Origin: a virus
Lineage: Duplodnaviria; Heunggongvirae; Uroviricota; Caudoviricetes
Length of the DNA stretch: 21,388 bases
Virus record (IMG/VR): IMGVR_UViG_3300029080_000073
Direction: 5' to 3' (one strand)
The notes beneath the pieces were generated by a model. That model saw only the letters and a program-made list of their open reading frames with translations. It made no database searches and had not been told where the DNA came from. Positions 3,915 to 20,073 of this stretch are shown in pieces (the stretch's first letter is position 1; each line of letters starts with the position of its first letter). Made by a program: the position numbers and the translations under genes.

Positions 3915-4334
3915 TCACCTGATTCGTTCGCGCGCTGTTTTCGCTTTATGGCAGGGCCAGCACAGACTCTGCAGGTTGCTGTCTGCGTCTGTTCCGCCAT
4001 GCGCTTTCGGGATGATGTGGTCGACGGTTTTCGCCTCGCTCACCACACCGGCACGCAGACACAACTGACACAGACCTTTATCGCGCTTCAGAATACGGGC
4101 ACGAATCACCGTCCATTTTGAGCCATAGCCACGCTGGTGGCGGCTCAGTCCGCGCTGGTGCTGCACCCAGCCTTCACCACGATGTTTACCACAGTAGCCA
4201 GAACTGTCTGTTGTTGTGCCTGCGCAGCCTCGCTTACGACAGGCGCGGGGGATCCGTGATGGCATTGGAATCTCCTTAATACCGACATTATCGCAGCCCC
4301 TCACTGAAGAGCTGCTGTAATGCCTGTTACTCAC
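3915..4334 (-). CDS. HNH endonuclease (packaging-associated)
   Basis: HNH motif DHIIPKAHGGTDADSNLQSLCWPCHKAK with flanking Cys pairs; classic position just upstream of terS. Confidence 0.8.
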   Translation of the reverse strand: MSNRHYSSSSVRGCDNVGIKEIPMPSRIPRACRKRGCAGTTTDSSGYCGKHRGEGWVQHQRGLSRHQRGYGSKWTVIRARILKRDKGLCQLCLRAGVVSEAKTVDHIIPKAHGGTDADSNLQSLCWPCHKAKTARERIR

Positions 4335-9646: not shown

Positions 9647-9802
9647 TTACTCCTCAGGTTCGTAAGCTGTGAAGACAGCGACCTCCGTCTGGCCGGTTCG
9701 GATTCGTACCTCGCAGAGGTCTTTCCTCGTTACCAGTGCCGTCACTATGACGGTTAAACAGATGACGATCAGGGCGATTAACATCGCCTTTTGCTGCTTC
9801 AT
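9647..9802 (-). CDS. hok: Hok/Gef family type I toxin (51 aa)
   Basis: MKQQKAMLIALIVICLTVIVTALVTRKDLCEVRIRTGQTEVAVFTAYEPEE matches the Hok/Gef family throughout (TM helix plus conserved C-terminal tail). Confidence 0.9.
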   Translation of the reverse strand: MKQQKAMLIALIVICLTVIVTALVTRKDLCEVRIRTGQTEVAVFTAYEPEE

Positions 9803-9859
9803 AGCCTGCTTCTCCTTGCCTTTCGGCACGTAAGAGGCTAACCTACATTTGTGAGACAT
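9647..9859 (-). CDS. mok: mok-like overlapping reading frame
   Basis: In-frame upstream extension (MSHKCRLASYVPKGKEKQA) of the hok ORF, as in hok/mok/sok loci. Confidence 0.55.
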   Translation of the reverse strand: MSHKCRLASYVPKGKEKQAMKQQKAMLIALIVICLTVIVTALVTRKDLCEVRIRTGQTEVAVFTAYEPEE

Positions 9860-9975
9860 AGATTGGGCCTCAGATTAATGTTAAGCGTCTTGCAGGACGC
9901 GTAATGTTAACTGGGGCTTTTCTCTATCTGCCTTTTGGTGTTCATGCCTGAGACAGATAGCCTCAAGCACCCGCA
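9860..9975 (+). ncRNA. sok: hok mRNA leader / predicted Sok antisense RNA region (exact ends not mapped)
   Basis: Region upstream of mok carries GCUUGAGGCU-like 5' end and local hairpins expected of the hok leader; Sok would lie on the opposite strand here. Confidence 0.3.
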
Positions 9976-13734: not shown

Positions 13735-14136
13735 ATGATGAACGCCCTAGAAGTATCTATGTACAGAATCAGCAAGCTTCTTCAGGAAACTGGATGGAGC
13801 CAGGCTGAGCTTGCCCGTAGAATTGGTGTGACACAACAAACTGTTCAACAATGGGTCAGCGGTAAGGCTACACCTAAAGCCTCAAGTTTGGATAAACTGG
13901 TTGAGGTTACAGGGCATCCATTGCATTGGTTTTTATTGCCTCCTGAAGAGGGGGAGCAAATTTTCACCCCTGACACGATGAAAATTGGTCCTCGTCAACG
14001 CGAACTGCTCCAGGCTTTTAGTGCGTTTCCAGAGGAAGACCAAGAAAAAATGCTTCAAGAAATCAAAGACAAGAAAAAATCAATGGAAGAAACCATTGCC
14101 CGGTGGTTGGCGGCACAAAAAAGCCGCCGGGCGTGA
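13735..14136 (+). CDS. DicA/cI-like XRE-family HTH repressor
   Basis: HTH (SQAELARRIGVTQQTVQQWVSG) plus C-terminal region laid out as in DicA; ATG sits about 7 bp after a TAAAAT -10-like hexamer, suggesting a leaderless mRNA. Confidence 0.7.
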   Translation: MMNALEVSMYRISKLLQETGWSQAELARRIGVTQQTVQQWVSGKATPKASSLDKLVEVTGHPLHWFLLPPEEGEQIFTPDTMKIGPRQRELLQAFSAFPEEDQEKMLQEIKDKKKSMEETIARWLAAQKSRRA

Positions 14137-14163: not shown

Positions 14164-14355
14164 ATGAGTACAGCCCTTTCTCCGATAGTTTCAGAATTCG
14201 AAACTACCGAACAAGAAAACAGTTACAACGAATGGTTACGCGCTAAAGTGGCGTCAAGCCTTGCAGACCCTCGTCCCTCAATTCCACATGATGAGGTAAT
14301 GGCTGAAATGGAGAATCTTATTGCTCAAATTGCTGTAACTAACAGGAGCGAGTAA
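14164..14355 (+). CDS. type II antitoxin (ParD/RelB-like)
   Basis: 63-aa ORF whose stop overlaps the toxin start (ATGA), directly upstream of a ParE/RelE-fold toxin. Confidence 0.55.
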   Translation: MSTALSPIVSEFETTEQENSYNEWLRAKVASSLADPRPSIPHDEVMAEMENLIAQIAVTNRSE

Positions 14356-14642
14356 TGTTACCCATTTTGTGGCTACCATCTGCTCGCGATGATTTGCGTC
14401 AGATCGTAGCCTATATTGCTAAGGAAAATATTCCTGCAGCACGCAGACTAAAAATACGGATTGAAACGTCTGTTTTAGCCCTCTCTGAGCATCCATATCT
14501 ATATCCGCCAAGTGATCGAGTATCCGGTTTGCGGGAAATTGTGGTTCACCCTAATTATATCGTTTTGTACCGAGTAGCAGCTTCAAGCATTGAAATTGCA
14601 AATATTGTGCATGCCCGCCGACAATTTCCCTTCCCTATCTGA
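14355..14642 (+). CDS. type II toxin, ParE/RelE superfamily
   Basis: 95 aa; DDLRQIVAYIAKENIPAARRL ... GLREIVVHPNYIVLYRV ... IANIVHARR matches the ParE/RelE pattern. Confidence 0.7.
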   Translation: MLPILWLPSARDDLRQIVAYIAKENIPAARRLKIRIETSVLALSEHPYLYPPSDRVSGLREIVVHPNYIVLYRVAASSIEIANIVHARRQFPFPI

Positions 14643-14688: not shown

Positions 14689-14695
14689 AACACAA

Positions 14696-14738
14696 CAATT
14701 AAAAACTGTTGACACAAAACAGTTTTTAATTGTAGATT
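14696..14738 (+). promoter_or_regulatory. operator 2 overlapping a sigma70-like promoter for the ydfA-dicB operon
   Basis: Perfect 14-bp inverted repeat CAATTAAAAACTGT-tgacacaaa-ACAGTTTTTAATTG; TTGACA (14709..14714) inside it, 17-18 bp before a TAGATT-like -10. Confidence 0.55.
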
Positions 14739-14914
14739 ATTTCCACTACCCCACCCCGCCCCACAGAACGCAGGGCAATACTTCGAGTTACCCGGCAGTG
14801 GTCAGGGGTTAAGTAGCCAGCCCGAGGCGTAAGAACATGACGGCAGGGTTCAACTTTAACTATGCAGCAGGTTTTTGTTCCGCTACCCCGGCGTTAAGGG
14901 GAAATGAGGTCAGC

Positions 14915-15070
14915 ATGGATACTATCGATCTTGGCAACAACGAATCTCTGGTGTGCGGCGTGTTTCCCAATCAGGACGGCACGTTCACCGCGATGACGTA
15001 TACCAAAAGCAAAACGCTTAAAACCGAAAATGGTGCCCGTCGCTGGCTGGAAAGAAACTCAGGTGAGTGA
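14915..15070 (+). CDS. ydfA: YdfA-like small protein (51 aa)
   Basis: Internal Met MDTIDLGNNESLVCGV... preceded by GAGGT; length and position match Qin ydfA (track ORF 14837..15070). Confidence 0.55.
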   Translation: MDTIDLGNNESLVCGVFPNQDGTFTAMTYTKSKTLKTENGARRWLERNSGE

Positions 15071-15071
15071 T

Positions 15072-15200
15072 ATGGATTTCAACACAATCATGGAAAAGGC
15101 TTACGAAGAATACTTCGAAGGCCTTGCCGAAGGCGAAGAAGCCCTCAGCTTCAGCGAATTTAAACAGGCGCTTTCCAGTTCGGCAAAATCTAACGGCTGA
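15072..15200 (+). CDS. ydfB: YdfB-like small protein (42 aa)
   Basis: Hand translation MDFNTIMEKAYEEYFEGLAEGEEALSFSEFKQALSSSAKSNG; starts 2 bp after previous stop; below track cutoff. Confidence 0.5.
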   Translation: MDFNTIMEKAYEEYFEGLAEGEEALSFSEFKQALSSSAKSNG

Positions 15201-15229
15201 TAAGCGAAGCAGCACCGCGAGGAATCAGT

Positions 15230-15448
15230 ATGCAGAAACGAGAACCCGTCATCATCGCGCCAGACTATACCGATGATGAACTTTATGAGTGGATGCACCA
15301 GAAAATTAAGGCTGCGCAGGACCTGAAATGGGCCAATGAAGCCAGGGCTAAGCAGGCTGAAAATCTGTCCGCTCTGGAGCAGGATATCACCAATCTGGAA
15401 AAAGCAGCGGCATTAAGCATTGCCAGAATGATTACATACCCACGTTAA
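15230..15448 (+). CDS. ydfC: YdfC-like protein (72 aa)
   Basis: 72-aa ORF in the ydfA-ydfB-ydfC order of the Qin dicB operon. Confidence 0.55.
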   Translation: MQKREPVIIAPDYTDDELYEWMHQKIKAAQDLKWANEARAKQAENLSALEQDITNLEKAAALSIARMITYPR

Positions 15449-15470
15449 TGGTTAACCAACGAGGCTAATA

Positions 15471-16076
15471 ATGGAATTTAAAGATTTACCAAAAGAAATC
15501 CAGATAATTGCTGCAACGACACTCGGTGATAGTCTGGTGAAAATTGACCCGGCATACACCAAAAAAGAAACCATCGATAATATGGTTCGTAATGTGCGCA
15601 ATGCTTTTTCAGGGCTATATGGTTCTGATAATCAAAAACAGGAAAACGATATTGATGAACGGGTAATTTCTGTTTGCCTGAATGGTCATGTTATTTCAGC
15701 AATCAGAACAGAAACGGCAACTGCTTTTGATTATCTCTGCATGATTCAGAGTCTTGCCGATGTTCTGTTGAAATCAAAAGATTTAGAAAACGATGCAAAT
15801 TTACAGGGGCGCACAATAGCACATCCATATGCACATATTTTAAGCTCTGTGGATGTTAAAAATAATACCCTGCAAGTTGCTTTCGAACATTCACCGCAAG
15901 AGTTAAAAACGAAAAAAGACGATGCGGATAAAAATAATAACGATGCACCTGATTTGTTTATTATCAGCTCAAAGCTGCTGGAAATCATGAAGAGCGAGCT
16001 TGAAAAACACAACATCAAGCCCACTTCTGTAAATTTACGATGGGTAATGAGGATTATTGACGCTTCTCTGTCATAA
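15471..16076 (+). CDS. hypothetical protein (201 aa), AT-rich insertion in the dicB operon
   Basis: ORF track; AATAATGG-type RBS context; markedly AT-rich codon usage versus neighbours; no recognisable motif. Confidence 0.5.
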   Translation: MEFKDLPKEIQIIAATTLGDSLVKIDPAYTKKETIDNMVRNVRNAFSGLYGSDNQKQENDIDERVISVCLNGHVISAIRTETATAFDYLCMIQSLADVLLKSKDLENDANLQGRTIAHPYAHILSSVDVKNNTLQVAFEHSPQELKTKKDDADKNNNDAPDLFIISSKLLEIMKSELEKHNIKPTSVNLRWVMRIIDASLS

Positions 16077-16569
16077 GCTTCTTATCCAGGAATGCTTCAA
16101 ATGTATTGTAAATGGCGTCAATTTCCCCCATTTGCTCGGTAGCAAGAGAAATGGCGTGAGATAGTGAAAGGGGCACCTAGCAATGGGCGTTAAAGGTTTC
16201 CACGGCCAGGCGCATAAGAAACATTACTTTTTCTTCTTGTGTCATAAATTTCACCCTCCTGAGGGTTGGTAATTAAGGAGTTCTCCACGGGTGAGGTGGA
16301 GTGTGTGCGCCGGACACGGGTGAGCATCCGGCACTGACAGTTTACAGAAAGGATATATCCCTGAAAAGTCAGGGCATAACGCGAAAGCGCACGGCGAGGT
16401 AGTTGGTTCATAGATAGCCTGTCGTTAAATTTTCGTCGACCGTGCGCTTCCGGTTGTGGCACTCCGCGAAATGGCGCGGCGGTAAGTATGGCGGGGTTAT
16501 TCCTTCCCCGTTGAGGACACCGGGTTGTCAGGTTGACCATACGCCTGAGTGACAACTCCGCTACAACAA

Positions 16570-16631
16570 CCCATGTTGATTACCTTTTGGCGGGTATTCG
16601 TTTTGTTTTTCCCGTGATACCCGCCCCTTTT
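16570..16631 (+). ncRNA. dicF: DicF-like small RNA (terminator-hairpin 3' end)
   Basis: Between ydfC and dicB as in Qin; 9-bp stem GGCGGGTAT / ATACCCGCC then CCTTTT; 5' end not determined. Confidence 0.4.
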
Positions 16632-16635
16632 AAAG

Positions 16636-16791
16636 TGAATTTTGTGATGCGGTGAATGCGGCTCAGCGCACGCGGAACAGTTAAAACAAGCGGTCTTTTA
16701 CTTGCGTAACAGACATCAACTAACAATCCGGCGTTAATTGTTGACTGGTTAACGTCACCTGGAGGCACCAGGCACCGCATCACAAAATTCA
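16636..16791. repeat. 19-bp long-range inverted repeat pair flanking 118 bp
   Basis: TGAATTTTGTGATGCGGTG (16636..16654) and CACCGCATCACAAAATTCA (16773..16791); inner palindrome CGTTAA-N11-TTAACG. Confidence 0.5.
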
Positions 16792-16808
16792 TTGTTGAGG
16801 ACGCGATA

Positions 16809-16997
16809 ATGGAAACGTTATTACCAAACGTTAATACGTCTGAAGGTTGTTTTGAAATTGGTGTCACTATCAGTAACCCAGTATTTACTGAAGATGCCAT
16901 TAACAAGAGAAAACAAGAACGGGAGCTATTAAATAAAATATGCATTGTTTCAATGCTGGCCCGTTTACGCCTGATGCAAAAAGGATGCTGGCAATGA
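16809..16997 (+). CDS. dicB: cell division inhibitor DicB
   Basis: 62 aa; sequence METLLPNVNTSEGCFEIGVTISNPVFTEDAINKRKQERELLNKICIVSMLARLRLM... recognised as DicB. Confidence 0.8.
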   Translation: METLLPNVNTSEGCFEIGVTISNPVFTEDAINKRKQERELLNKICIVSMLARLRLMQKGCWQ

Positions 16998-17197
16998 ATA
17001 CTACATTTGCACTTGTTCTGACGGTTTTTCTTGTTTCCAGTGAACCGGTTGACATGGTTACTGGCGTATACGGCTCAATGAAAGAATGCATGGTTGCCGC
17101 AGCGGAACAGAAAATTCCCGGTAACTGTTATCCGGTCGATAAAGTTATTCACATGGATAATAACGAAATCCCGGCAGGACTTAAAACAGCACCGTAA
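16994..17197 (+). CDS. ydfD: YdfD-like small secreted/membrane protein (lysis-associated in Qin)
   Basis: Start MNTTFALVLTVFLVSS (signal-peptide-like) overlaps dicB stop by ATGA, as in Qin; track ORF 16940..17197. Confidence 0.55.
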   Translation: MNTTFALVLTVFLVSSEPVDMVTGVYGSMKECMVAAAEQKIPGNCYPVDKVIHMDNNEIPAGLKTAP

Positions 17198-17277
17198 TTA
17201 ATATCCGGTTTCATTTTTATATGCCAGCAATGGCAGGGATTTGTTCACCCTTAAATCTGTAATGAGGTTAAAACAAA

Positions 17278-19749
17278 ATGAGTAAAGTCTTTATTTGCGC
17301 CGCCATTCCGGACGAACAGGCAATAAAGGAAGAAGGTGCAGTCGCTGTAGCCACTGCCATTGAAGCCGGCGACGAACGTCGCGCCCGTGCCAAATTTACC
17401 TGGCAATTCCTGGAGCAATATCCGGCTGCTCAGGACTGCGCTTATAAATTTCTTGTCTGCGAGGATAAACCCGGCATGCCCCGCCCTGCCATCGACTCTT
17501 GGGATGCTGAATATATGCAGGAAAACCGCTGGGATGAGGAGTCAGCTTCCTTTGTCCCGGTTGAGACTGAATCAGATCCGATGAACGTCACTTTTGACAA
17601 GCTGGCCCCTGAAGTACAGAACGCTGTCATGGTTAAGTTCGACACATGTGAAAACATCACCGTTGATATGGTGATTAGTGCACAGGAACTGTTGCAGGAA
17701 GACATGGCAACATTCGACGGACATATCGTTGAAGCGTTGATGAAAATGCCAGAAGTTAACGCCATGTATCCGGAGCTTAAGCTGCATGCCATCGGGTGGG
17801 TTAAGCATAAATGTAAGCCTGGAGCTAAATGGCCCGAAATTCAGGCAGAGATGCGCATCTGGAAAAAACGTCGCGAAGGTGAACGCAAGGAAACCGGAAA
17901 ATACACGTCTGCTGCTGATCTCGTCCGCGCCAGAGCCAATCAACAGAACACTGAAAATTCAACAGGAAAAATCAGCCCGGTCATTGCTGCCACTCATCGC
18001 GAATACAAGCAGACATGGAAAACACTGGATGATGAACTGGCCTACGCTCTGTGGCCTGGTGACATTGATGCCGGAAACATTGACGGCAGCATCCATCGCT
18101 GGGCAAAAAATGAAGTTATCAACAACGACCGCGAAGACTGGAAGCGTATCTCAGCATCAATGCGCAAACAGCCTGATGCCCTTCGCTACGACCGCCAGAC
18201 TATTTTTGGCCTTGTCCGTGAGCGTCCGATCGACATTCACAAAGACCCTGTGGCACTGAACAAATACATTACTGAATACCTGACTACAAAGGGCGTGTTT
18301 GAAGATGAAGGAACAAATCAGAGCGCAACTGATACTCTCTCGTCGCCAGTACCAGAAACTGATGCAGTGGAAACGGCAATTCCGGACAACGAAAAAACCG
18401 AATGCAAAGTGGAAGTCGAACCATCTGTAGAGCGTGAGGGGCCGTTCTACTTCCTCTTCACCGACAAGGATGGCGAAAAATACGGTCGCGCAAACAAACT
18501 TTCTGGTCTGGATAAGGCGCTGTCTGCTGGGGCTACTGAAATCACGAAAGAAGAATATTTCGCCCGCAAAAACGGTACATACTCAGGTTCACAACAAAAT
18601 ACTGGTGCATCTGACACGACCGCACAACCAGGGTCAGTAAAAGTTACCGCTGACGAAGTAAACAAAATTATGCAGGCAGCCAATATCAGCCAGCCTGACG
18701 CCGATGAACTGCTTGCAGTATCACGTGGTGAATTTGTTGAAGGGATTAGCGACCCGAATGATCCGAAATGGGTTAAGGGGATCCAGACCCGCGATTCTGT
18801 GAACCAGAACCAGCAAGAAACGGAACAGAACGACCAGAAAGCGGAACAAAACAGCCCAAATACGCAACAAAACGAGCCAGAAACGAAACAACCTGAACCA
18901 GTAGTGCAACAGGAACCGGAAAAGATCTGCACCGCCTGCGGTCATAGCGGTGGCGGCAACTGCCCTGATTGTGGTGCGGTGATGGGTGACGCAACATACC
19001 AGGAAATATTCGATGGAGAGAATCAGCCTGAAGTTCAGGAAAATGATCCGGAGGAAATGGAAGGCACTGCGCATCAGCACAAGGAGAACACTGGCGGCAA
19101 TCAGCATCATGCCAGCGATAGTGAAACTGGCGAGGCGTCAGATCCCTTAATTAAGGCGAACGGTCATCATAATCTCACATCCACCAGCAGAGCGGGGATT
19201 CATCTGATGATCGACCTTGAAACCATGGGAAAAAATCCCGATGCCCCGATTATCTCAATAGGTGCAATATTTTTCGATCCGCAAACCGGAGATATGGGAC
19301 CGGAATTTAGTAAGACTATCGATCTGGAAACTGCTGGCGGAGTCATTGATCGGGACACCATTAAATGGTGGCTTAAGCAATCACGCGAAGCGCAATCTGC
19401 CATTATGACCGATGAAATCCCGTTAGATGATGCACTGTTACAATTGCGGGAATTTATCGACGAAAACTCCGGTGAATTTTTTGTTCAGGTCTGGGGAAAT
19501 GGAGCCAACTTCGACAACACGATTTTGCGCCGTTCATACGAACGGCAGGGGATCCCCTGCCCGTGGCGTTACTACAACGATCGCGATGTACGCACAATCG
19601 TTGAGCTGGGGAAAGCCATAGACTTCGATGCCAGAACGGCTATTCCATTCGAAGGTGAGCGCCATAATGCACTTGATGACGCCCGTTACCAGGCAAAATA
19701 CGTTTCAGCTATCTGGCAAAAACTGATCCCGAGTCAGGCTGATTCTTAA
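17278..19749 (+). CDS. 823-aa protein: YdfE/RecE-N-like region, zinc ribbon, C-terminal DEDDh (DnaQ-like) 3'-5' exonuclease domain
   Basis: C-terminal exonuclease motifs MIDLETMG, WGNGANFDNTIL and HNALDDARYQ; C-x2-C-x7-C-x2-C ribbon (CTACGHSGGGNCPDC); Q/E/N-rich linker. Confidence 0.7.
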   Translation: MSKVFICAAIPDEQAIKEEGAVAVATAIEAGDERRARAKFTWQFLEQYPAAQDCAYKFLVCEDKPGMPRPAIDSWDAEYMQENRWDEESASFVPVETESDPMNVTFDKLAPEVQNAVMVKFDTCENITVDMVISAQELLQEDMATFDGHIVEALMKMPEVNAMYPELKLHAIGWVKHKCKPGAKWPEIQAEMRIWKKRREGERKETGKYTSAADLVRARANQQNTENSTGKISPVIAATHREYKQTWKTLDDELAYALWPGDIDAGNIDGSIHRWAKNEVINNDREDWKRISASMRKQPDALRYDRQTIFGLVRERPIDIHKDPVALNKYITEYLTTKGVFEDEGTNQSATDTLSSPVPETDAVETAIPDNEKTECKVEVEPSVEREGPFYFLFTDKDGEKYGRANKLSGLDKALSAGATEITKEEYFARKNGTYSGSQQNTGASDTTAQPGSVKVTADEVNKIMQAANISQPDADELLAVSRGEFVEGISDPNDPKWVKGIQTRDSVNQNQQETEQNDQKAEQNSPNTQQNEPETKQPEPVVQQEPEKICTACGHSGGGNCPDCGAVMGDATYQEIFDGENQPEVQENDPEEMEGTAHQHKENTGGNQHHASDSETGEASDPLIKANGHHNLTSTSRAGIHLMIDLETMGKNPDAPIISIGAIFFDPQTGDMGPEFSKTIDLETAGGVIDRDTIKWWLKQSREAQSAIMTDEIPLDDALLQLREFIDENSGEFFVQVWGNGANFDNTILRRSYERQGIPCPWRYYNDRDVRTIVELGKAIDFDARTAIPFEGERHNALDDARYQAKYVSAIWQKLIPSQADS

Positions 19750-19821: not shown

Positions 19822-20073
19822 ATGAGCGAAGTAATCATGATTGTCTCTCCCGGCAAATGGGTATCCGAAGAGCAGTTAATTGCGCTGAAAGGAATAAAAA
19901 AAGGTACGTTAAAAAAGGCCCGGGAAAAATCGTTTATGGAAGGAAGGGAATATAAGCATGTCGCTCATGACGGTATGCCATGGGATAACAGTCCATGCTT
20001 TTACAACCTGGAAGAAATTGATCGCTGGATTGAGCGCCAGGCATCAGCAAGACCAAGACGTCATCTTACTTGA
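19822..20073 (+). CDS. xis: excisionase-like protein
   Basis: 83-aa basic ORF immediately upstream of the integrase gene; positional plus weak family recall. Confidence 0.55.
   Translation: MSEVIMIVSPGKWVSEEQLIALKGIKKGTLKKAREKSFMEGREYKHVAHDGMPWDNSPCFYNLEEIDRWIERQASARPRRHLT

Follow-up and report, generated by a model that had tools for sequence, protein, structure and literature searches.

We examined an open reading frame (ORF) of 201 codons, hereafter ORF201, that lies between ydfC and a DicF homolog in the dicB operon of a Caudoviricetes genome (IMG/VR record IMGVR_UViG_3300029080_000073; the window is the whole 21,388-nucleotide stretch that was analyzed). ORF201 is a genuine protein-coding gene kept by selection. 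Judged by sequence, its product is a chimera of module A (residues 1–55), module B (residues 62–132), a disordered linker, and module C (residues 161–201), and each module is found separately in temperate phages of Enterobacterales. Module C co-occurs with p63, a gene of 63 codons on the opposite strand whose 3′ end overlaps that of ORF201, and module B co-occurs elsewhere with p77, an unrelated convergent gene. An earlier note, made from the letters of the window, had singled out ORF201 as an inserted gene of undescribed function. The insertion relative to the K-12 prophage Qin stands, but rather than one novel gene, ORF201 is an in-frame fusion of three modules represented in phrog_1363, phrog_15476, and phrog_2982, and it belongs to a two-gene cassette whose convergent member, p63, the note had missed. 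By sequence it belongs with the mosaic accessory genes of the early operon, in phage families that are catalogued but uncharacterized.

The 201-aa gene called in the earlier note is borne out by the ORF call, its ribosome-binding site (RBS), shuffling, and substitution rates. ORF201 starts 22 nt after the ydfC stop codon. When positions 15301–16300 were shuffled 2000 times, an ATG-initiated ORF of at least 201 codons appeared in 0.1% of the shuffles. Relative to copies of 84% protein identity, the ratio of nonsynonymous to synonymous substitution rates (dN/dS) is 0.30 in the ORF201 frame and 0.97–1.03 in the two other frames; by part, it is 0.13 in module A, 0.36 in module B, and 0.23–0.26 in the linker plus module C. 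The 201-codon frame is uninterrupted in eight of eight complete E. coli genomes (copies 81–99% identical), and 201-residue relatives form 18 clusters in the protein database. The contrast in composition with the flanking genes was also described correctly: ORF201 has a GC content of 0.375 (0.33 at third codon positions), compared with 0.48–0.50 for ydfA, ydfB, and ydfC, 0.51 for the downstream spacer, and 0.49 across the window as a whole. Among 606-nt stretches of the window it ranks as the most AT-rich; of all stretches of that length in the 21.4 kb, only 0.2% reach its AT content.

RefSeq, annotated by the Prokaryotic Genome Annotation Pipeline (PGAP), labels codons 1–133 of ORF201 as a pseudogene, “incomplete; missing C-terminus,” in all eight genomes (L001, L084–L090). 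Taken at face value, the label would make ORF201 a decaying fusion, that is, a 135-aa gene that has lost its stop codon and reads into junk, and many database relatives are in fact frameshifted or truncated. We find this reading hardly credible, given that the C-terminal extension evolves under the constraint reported above, that it is intact in every full-length copy, and that its last 40 residues match independent phage families and have homologs in Shigella, Edwardsiella, and Serratia phages. The piece annotated by RefSeq is the part that ORF201 has in common with a 135-aa form of the protein, and this is presumably why the label arises. We consider it an annotation artifact and a systematic mis-annotation.

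The modular anatomy emerged from a profile search of 1.84 billion cluster representatives, which returned only 54 relatives. These fall into three separate match groups, covering residues 1–55/75, 62–132, and 141–201, and only one of the 54, the cluster of ORF201 itself, spans all three. The synonymous rate differs among modules A, B, and C (0.06, 0.44, and 0.25), as expected for a mosaic. Three uncharacterized PHROG families divide the protein in a similar manner: residues 1–130 correspond to positions 1–138 of the 139 in phrog_1363 (E 1.4e-40), residues 160–200 match phrog_15476 (E 8.1e-10), and residues 162–199 match phrog_2982 (E 1.1e-07).

Module A heads many E. coli prophage proteins with unrelated tails (total length 119–212 aa; at least five different tails), and in BFVD it matches a 52-aa protein of phage phi191. 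Module B, which is covered by no Pfam family, occurs elsewhere as a standalone protein of 75–80 aa in prophages of Serratia, Yersinia, Klebsiella, Citrobacter, Hafnia, Dickeya, Pectobacterium, and Erwinia. In some proteins it follows a YdfC-like region as a fusion (P0144, P0150, P0153), and in P0108 and P0163 it is joined directly to a ClpX-type zinc finger. Module C has homologs in P0075, P0076, P0080, and P0085 and in phages SfII, EPP-1, and phiSTEC1589; its position is invariably C-terminal and directly adjacent to the 63-aa gene, and it occurs alone or behind YdfC-like (P0075, P0080) or other N-terminal parts. An AlphaFold2 (AF2) model built from 79 sequences, including diverse module-B proteins, reached a mean predicted local distance difference test score (pLDDT) of 64, that is, medium confidence; a model from 29 close homologs (pLDDT 39) was unusable. 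Structure prediction had been proposed in the earlier note as a check. In PDB searches by sequence, with profiles of B plus C, B, C, and p63 and with p77 as a single sequence, no match fell below E 0.36.

The boundaries of the insertion are sharp. In blastn comparisons, E. coli K-12 (NC_000913.3) aligns to window positions 14877–15468 and 16264–17300, and exactly the 795 bp between them are absent; the stretch is missing from Qin, whereas the earlier note had it as noncoding there. Among 5426 complete E. coli genomes, the empty K-12-type junction occurs in 2697 and some part of ORF201 in 677, whereas the 3′ segment of ORF201 occurs in only eight, always in the window-type arrangement. The common occupant is a 135-aa “hypothetical protein” (WP_001735123.1; phrog_1363), whose first 130 residues, modules A and B, are 94% identical to those of ORF201. 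Like ORF201 it comes immediately after ydfC, and it too has a convergent partner with overlapping 3′ ends (77 aa, phrog_10348); ORF201 differs in carrying 70 more residues, the linker and module C, and in having a partner of another family (63 aa, phrog_2605). Relative to this form in strain ATCC 43886 and phage Evi, homology ends at 15863 and resumes at 16250; therefore, the segment between took the place of the final five codons of the 135-aa form and of its 77-aa partner gene. The linker begins at this recombination junction, 15863/15864. By these alignments, ORF201 represents a rare fusion version of the 135-aa protein often seen in the slot after ydfC, and it arose by in-frame recombination that joined modules A and B, through the disordered linker, to module C.

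The segment brought p63 along with module C, and the two travel together elsewhere. Both match the same five phage records (SfII, two entries; Edwardsiella phage EPP-1; phiSTEC1589-Stx1c; and PhiR5_2), and in each they are adjacent, tail to tail. In 61 of 62 p63-family loci, which represent about ten lineages with p63 35–98% identical to the query, module C is convergent to p63, and in nearly all of them the matched stretches overlap by 13–32 nt. The converse case, module C without p63, was sought in the phage-genome collection and did not occur there; an IMG/VR search with a four-sequence module C alignment gave only two contigs already known. The pairs of SfII, EPP-1, and phiSTEC1589-Stx1c resemble that of the window (module C 51–55% and partner 35–51% identical) in being convergent, with abutting or overlapping 3′ ends, in the early-left region near the repressor gene. 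In SfII and EPP-1 they come first behind cI, and in phiSTEC1589 they follow N and one other ORF. They differ in that their module C stands alone or is preceded by other N-terminal parts, YdfC-like ones among them; the A-B-C join is found only in the ORF201 lineage. In SfII (L017), an unannotated ORF of 68 codons at 3947–4153, the first after cI and the cI terminator, consists of module C alone and is convergent with the annotated gene SfII_36.

A second pair has the same layout. Module B and p77 match the same 12 records in the phage-genome collection, and p77 homologs (56–80% identity) are convergent to the module-B gene in E. coli, Serratia, Hafnia, and Yersinia. A small convergent gene accompanies each of the slot variants examined, and which partner it is depends on the tail of the plus-strand protein: the 135-aa form has one of 77 aa, a 208-aa form one of 69 aa, and a 179-aa form one of 80 aa, such that the module-A tails examined pair with partner genes of 63, 69, 77, and 80 aa. 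The two pairs were compared as possible distant homologs and the idea was rejected (hhalign probability ~0.1% for p63 against p77 and for C against B). A Yersinia contig (L016, 4385–5922) carries two convergent pairs in succession. In the first, a ClpX-type zinc-finger protein (89 aa) is opposed by an 87-aa ORF, and in the second, a fusion of YdfC and module B (191 aa) is opposed by a p77-like ORF. Neighboring genes of lambdoid phages that are co-transferred tend to be functionally interdependent (PMC9836094), which supports reading such pairs as functional units.

The p63 protein, intact as WP_001297794.1, is soluble (grand average of hydropathy −0.06, pI 5.2) and conserved as a protein. Its gene is intact in seven of the eight complete E. 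coli genomes; in the window, codon 23 is TAG (plus-strand A at 16179), where CP098223 has CAG. The p63 leader, including its GGAGG, also precedes the unrelated 77-aa gene in L002. Within 200 nt upstream of p63 homologs of SfII-type lineages (L020, L046, L048–L052) lies a conserved motif, CTTTTCACCACnTCAGGCnnGGTGGTATCTTGG...CCAAGAAGG, which comprises two inverted repeats and the promoter-like hexamers TTCACC-16/17-TATCTT. The window-type lineage has another conserved leader.

Searches for a known function were uniformly negative. Pfam and NCBIfam matched neither ORF201, nor its modules, nor any of the partner ORFs; no enzymatic, NTPase, nuclease, or membrane domain was found in ORF201 by Pfam and sequence analysis; and literature searches by accession, phage name, and operon retrieved no study of these proteins. 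The earlier note had seen no recognizable motif, and indeed no profile of known function, including those of housekeeping phage proteins, matches. Several classes were considered and rejected. A type II toxin–antitoxin system does not fit, the genes being convergent instead of co-directional and without a toxin or antitoxin fold by Pfam or NCBIfam, whereas the PaaA2/ParE pair of the window (14164–14642) was readily detected by profiles. A type I system with a 3′-overlapping antisense does not fit a p63 that is soluble and protein-conserved or an ORF201 without a hydrophobic segment. ORF201 shares with polymorphic toxin/immunity cassettes a conserved N-terminal module (A) and interchangeable C-terminal parts, each co-varying with its own adjacent small ORF. 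It differs from a full locus of this type in its convergent partners and in the lack of a Pfam toxin or export domain and of a secretion-signal-like segment; the proteins are small and predicted to be cytoplasmic.

A DNA-binding role was suggested by module C, which by eye is in register with Arc, Mnt, and CopG and which, in the unusable first AF2 model, formed a strand-helix-helix at residues 162–199. ORF201 would then be a regulator whose module C, ribbon-helix-helix-like, dimerizes and binds an operator. This is very unlikely, as the ribbon-helix-helix (Arc/MetJ/CopG) profile tests failed: eight module-C sequences gave no Pfam match at E up to 10, and the hhalign probability was 12.7%.

The earlier note had linked the location to defence, and nothing ties the cassette to it. 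If the cassette were prophage cargo serving anti-phage defence or superinfection exclusion, with ORF201 and p63 as its components, its variable slot (empty, occupied, or of window type in the genome counts above) and its AT-rich composition, like that of acquired cargo, would be in keeping, as would a small gene in opposite orientation, an arrangement that we take sieB in Rac to share. We judge this improbable. PADLOC-DB 2.0.0 has no family matching ORF201, YdfA, YdfB, YdfC, p63, p77, or the other tails and partners, the domains listed above are lacking, and ORF201 lies in a repressed lytic operon and so is not expected to be made in the lysogen.

The position of ORF201 in the operon bears on how it might act. 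As the earlier note had stated, it lies between ydfC and dicF/dicB in the repressor-controlled dicB operon: it is on the same strand as these genes and downstream of a promoter-like site that is presumably repressor-controlled. In K-12, ydfABC-dicF form one transcript repressed by DicA, and dicBp is under DicA repression (PMC10448788). In the window, the palindrome at 14695–14738 is likely the operator and promoter that drive the ydfABC-ORF201/ydfABC-dicB operon, and no plus-strand terminator-like site was found from there to ORF201. ORF201 is probably co-transcribed with ydfA-ydfB-ydfC upon prophage derepression. ORF201 encodes a soluble, acidic protein (pI 5.4) with no transmembrane or signal-like segment (highest 19-residue Kyte–Doolittle mean 1.18) and no catalytic motif, and binding is therefore its most likely mode of action. 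On the other strand, p63 faces against the early operon and has its own RBS, and so it is placed for expression while the early operon is silent.

Our tentative reading, which we hold to be possible rather than probable, is that ORF201 is a nonenzymatic immediate-early binding protein whose module C forms a cognate pair with the 63-aa protein of the opposite strand and acts either with it or against it. The timing of expression, physical interaction, and any phenotype that we infer would be as follows. In the lysogen, with the early operon repressed, p63 would be made; ORF201 would be made only after derepression. Upon induction, early transcription would run into p63, module C would act on the p63 product, and convergent transcription across the overlapping 3′ ends would help this action. 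The logic would be that of a factor made in the lysogen and its early antagonist, as in exclusion and escape. The p63 of the window carries an amber codon, so only the early protein would remain here.

Several observations weigh against this reading. The one p63 locus in 62 that lacks module C, a degraded Buttiauxella remnant, has kept p63 alone, which argues against strict toxin–antidote dependence. ORF201 is intact where p63 is broken, in this window and in genome L090, and selection on ORF201 is therefore independent of p63. Module B is present in ORF201 without its usual p77 partner. A promoter scan found no convincing sigma-70 consensus promoter for p63 in the window-type lineage; the best candidate in the window, TTTTCA-17-TAAACT, starting 122 nt upstream of the ATG, is weak. 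The AF2 model of ORF201 is of medium confidence, and overlapping 3′ ends alone could explain at least part of the co-inheritance.

ORF201 could instead be a stand-alone host-takeover effector that acts by binding a target in the host and is functionally unconnected with p63, the pairing then reflecting physical linkage only. DicB, Kil, and CIII are early proteins of the same kind of operon that bind a host target; ORF201 shares its operon with dicB and DicF and is conserved where p63 is inactivated, and the fusion of modules B and C to other early-operon neighbors (YdfC-like regions and the ClpX-type zinc finger) fits small proteins of one early pathway. This alternative, which we hold to be nearly as likely as the cognate pair, has against it that two unrelated pairs, B/p77 and C/p63, keep the convergent layout across genera at 35–60% identity, and no host target can be named. 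With DicB, DicF, and Kil, ORF201 has in common a repressor-controlled transcript and a small, nonessential character (PMC5069750, PMC10448788); it has no homology to them and is not known to affect cell division.

Closest in logic to a cognate pair of this kind are polymorphic cassettes with cognate partners and the exclusion and escape functions SieB/Esc of lambda and P22, with sieB of Rac. In the latter, a gene of the early-left region that serves in the lysogen is matched by a phage product that spares it. Rac sieB is, we presume, oriented against the early operon in the equivalent position. The likeness is one of position and orientation only, with no sequence similarity by any profile search. 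SieB, a membrane protein, is larger, and Esc is produced in frame from within sieB rather than from a separate convergent gene. Taken together, ORF201 fails defining tests of polymorphic cassettes, toxin–antitoxin systems, and known defence systems, as well as the profile tests for ribbon-helix-helix proteins.

The surroundings of the cassette are listed in Table 1. On the plus strand, the order is repressor, PaaA2/ParE, promoter palindrome, ydfA-like, ydfB-like, ydfC, ORF201, DicF homolog, dicB, DUF1482/ydfD-like gene, and exonuclease. Compared with K-12 DicF, the DicF homolog has a 9-nt deletion and an altered 5′ half and retains the terminator hairpin (fold −16.8 kcal/mol, z −3.9); Rfam gave no DicF match at 16584–16631, whether the gathering score was applied or E values up to 10 were allowed. 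The targets of this divergent homolog may differ from those of K-12 DicF. Between it and dicB, a subthreshold match to the STnc100 small RNA family (RF02076) lies at 16638–16786 on the plus strand (34.6 bits, gathering score 47, E 1.3e-05). A full-length match to the sok antitoxin RNA (RF01794, 120 bits) at 9797–9972 on the minus strand indicates a putative hok/sok type I toxin–antitoxin locus elsewhere in the prophage. The exonuclease has a C-terminal Rv2179c-like 3′–5′ exoribonuclease domain (E 3.8e-67), preceded by a long region without a significant Pfam match.

Table 1. Features of the ORF201 cassette and of the surrounding prophage region (positions in the window).
Feature	Position	Strand	Basis or remark
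Helix-turn-helix repressor gene	13735–14136	+	Upstream of the toxin–antitoxin pair
PaaA2-type antitoxin (63 aa) and ParE toxin (95 aa)	14164–14642	+	Immediately after the repressor gene and before the early promoter; profile match
Promoter-like TTGACA-18-TAGATT inside a perfect inverted repeat, 16-bp arms	14695–14738	+	Sequence scan
ydfC	15230–15448	+	Upstream neighbor; phrog_1744
GAGG RBS of ORF201	15461–15464	+	6 nt before the ATG; read from the sequence
Two-gene cassette, 795 bp	15469–16263		Absent from K-12 Qin; blastn against NC_000913.3
ORF201	15471–16076	+	201 codons, stop included, ATG start; ORF list, intact in relatives, dN/dS
Module A (aa 1–55), predicted helical hairpin	15471–15635	+	Profile matches; AF2 pLDDT 63–75
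Module B (aa 62–132), predicted beta-hairpin and two helices	15654–15866	+	Profile matches; AF2 pLDDT 70–84
Swapped segment (linker, module C, and p63)	15864–16249		Comparison with ATCC 43886
Linker (aa 133–160), Lys/Asp/Asn-rich, predicted disordered	15867–15950	+	pLDDT 30–36
Module C (aa 161–201), two predicted helices	15951–16073	+	phrog_15476, phrog_2982; pLDDT 68–83
p63, 63 codons, phrog_2605; pseudogene in the window	16054–16245	−	PHROG match; 3′ end overlaps ORF201 by 23 nt
GGAGG RBS of p63	16255–16259	−	9 nt before the ATG, right edge of the cassette
DicF homolog, divergent, with terminator hairpin	~16584–16631	+	Alignment to K-12 dicF; downstream of the cassette
dicB	16809–16997	+	PF05358, E 3e-40
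Exonuclease gene, 823 aa	17278–19749	+	Follows the DUF1482/ydfD-like gene
ORFs at the positions of excisionase and integrase in near-identical relatives	19822–20073; 20093 to window end	+	Putative identity, from position

To our knowledge, few genes in the early-left operons of lambdoid prophages have been studied; those that have, Kil, DicB, DicF, CIII, Gam, Ral, and SieB, each revealed a host target or a phage–phage interaction. An anonymous ORF is here resolved into parts that can be tested, namely three autonomous modules and two convergent pairs conserved across genera, and a systematic error is exposed in which RefSeq marks an intact, conserved gene as a pseudogene in eight of eight complete genomes. 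The convergent pairs are the part worth following. Minimal natural versions exist in culturable phages (SfII, EPP-1, and the Stx1c phage), and SfII offers a minimal natural system for experiments.

As a conjecture that we regard as rather unlikely, the early-left operons of Enterobacterales temperate phages may hold an undescribed class of convergent, 3′-overlapping cognate pairs (B/p77, C/p63, and others behind module A), in which a lysogen protein and an immediate-early protein would antagonize each other through convergent transcription and direct binding; ORF201 would be a chimeric early component with two such specificities. If such a class exists, it would constitute a second layer of the lysogeny–lysis or exclusion–escape decision. 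Antagonistic pairs would bring a new regulatory or exclusion layer into a classic model system; if the pairs are not antagonists, ORF201 would be one more accessory early protein.
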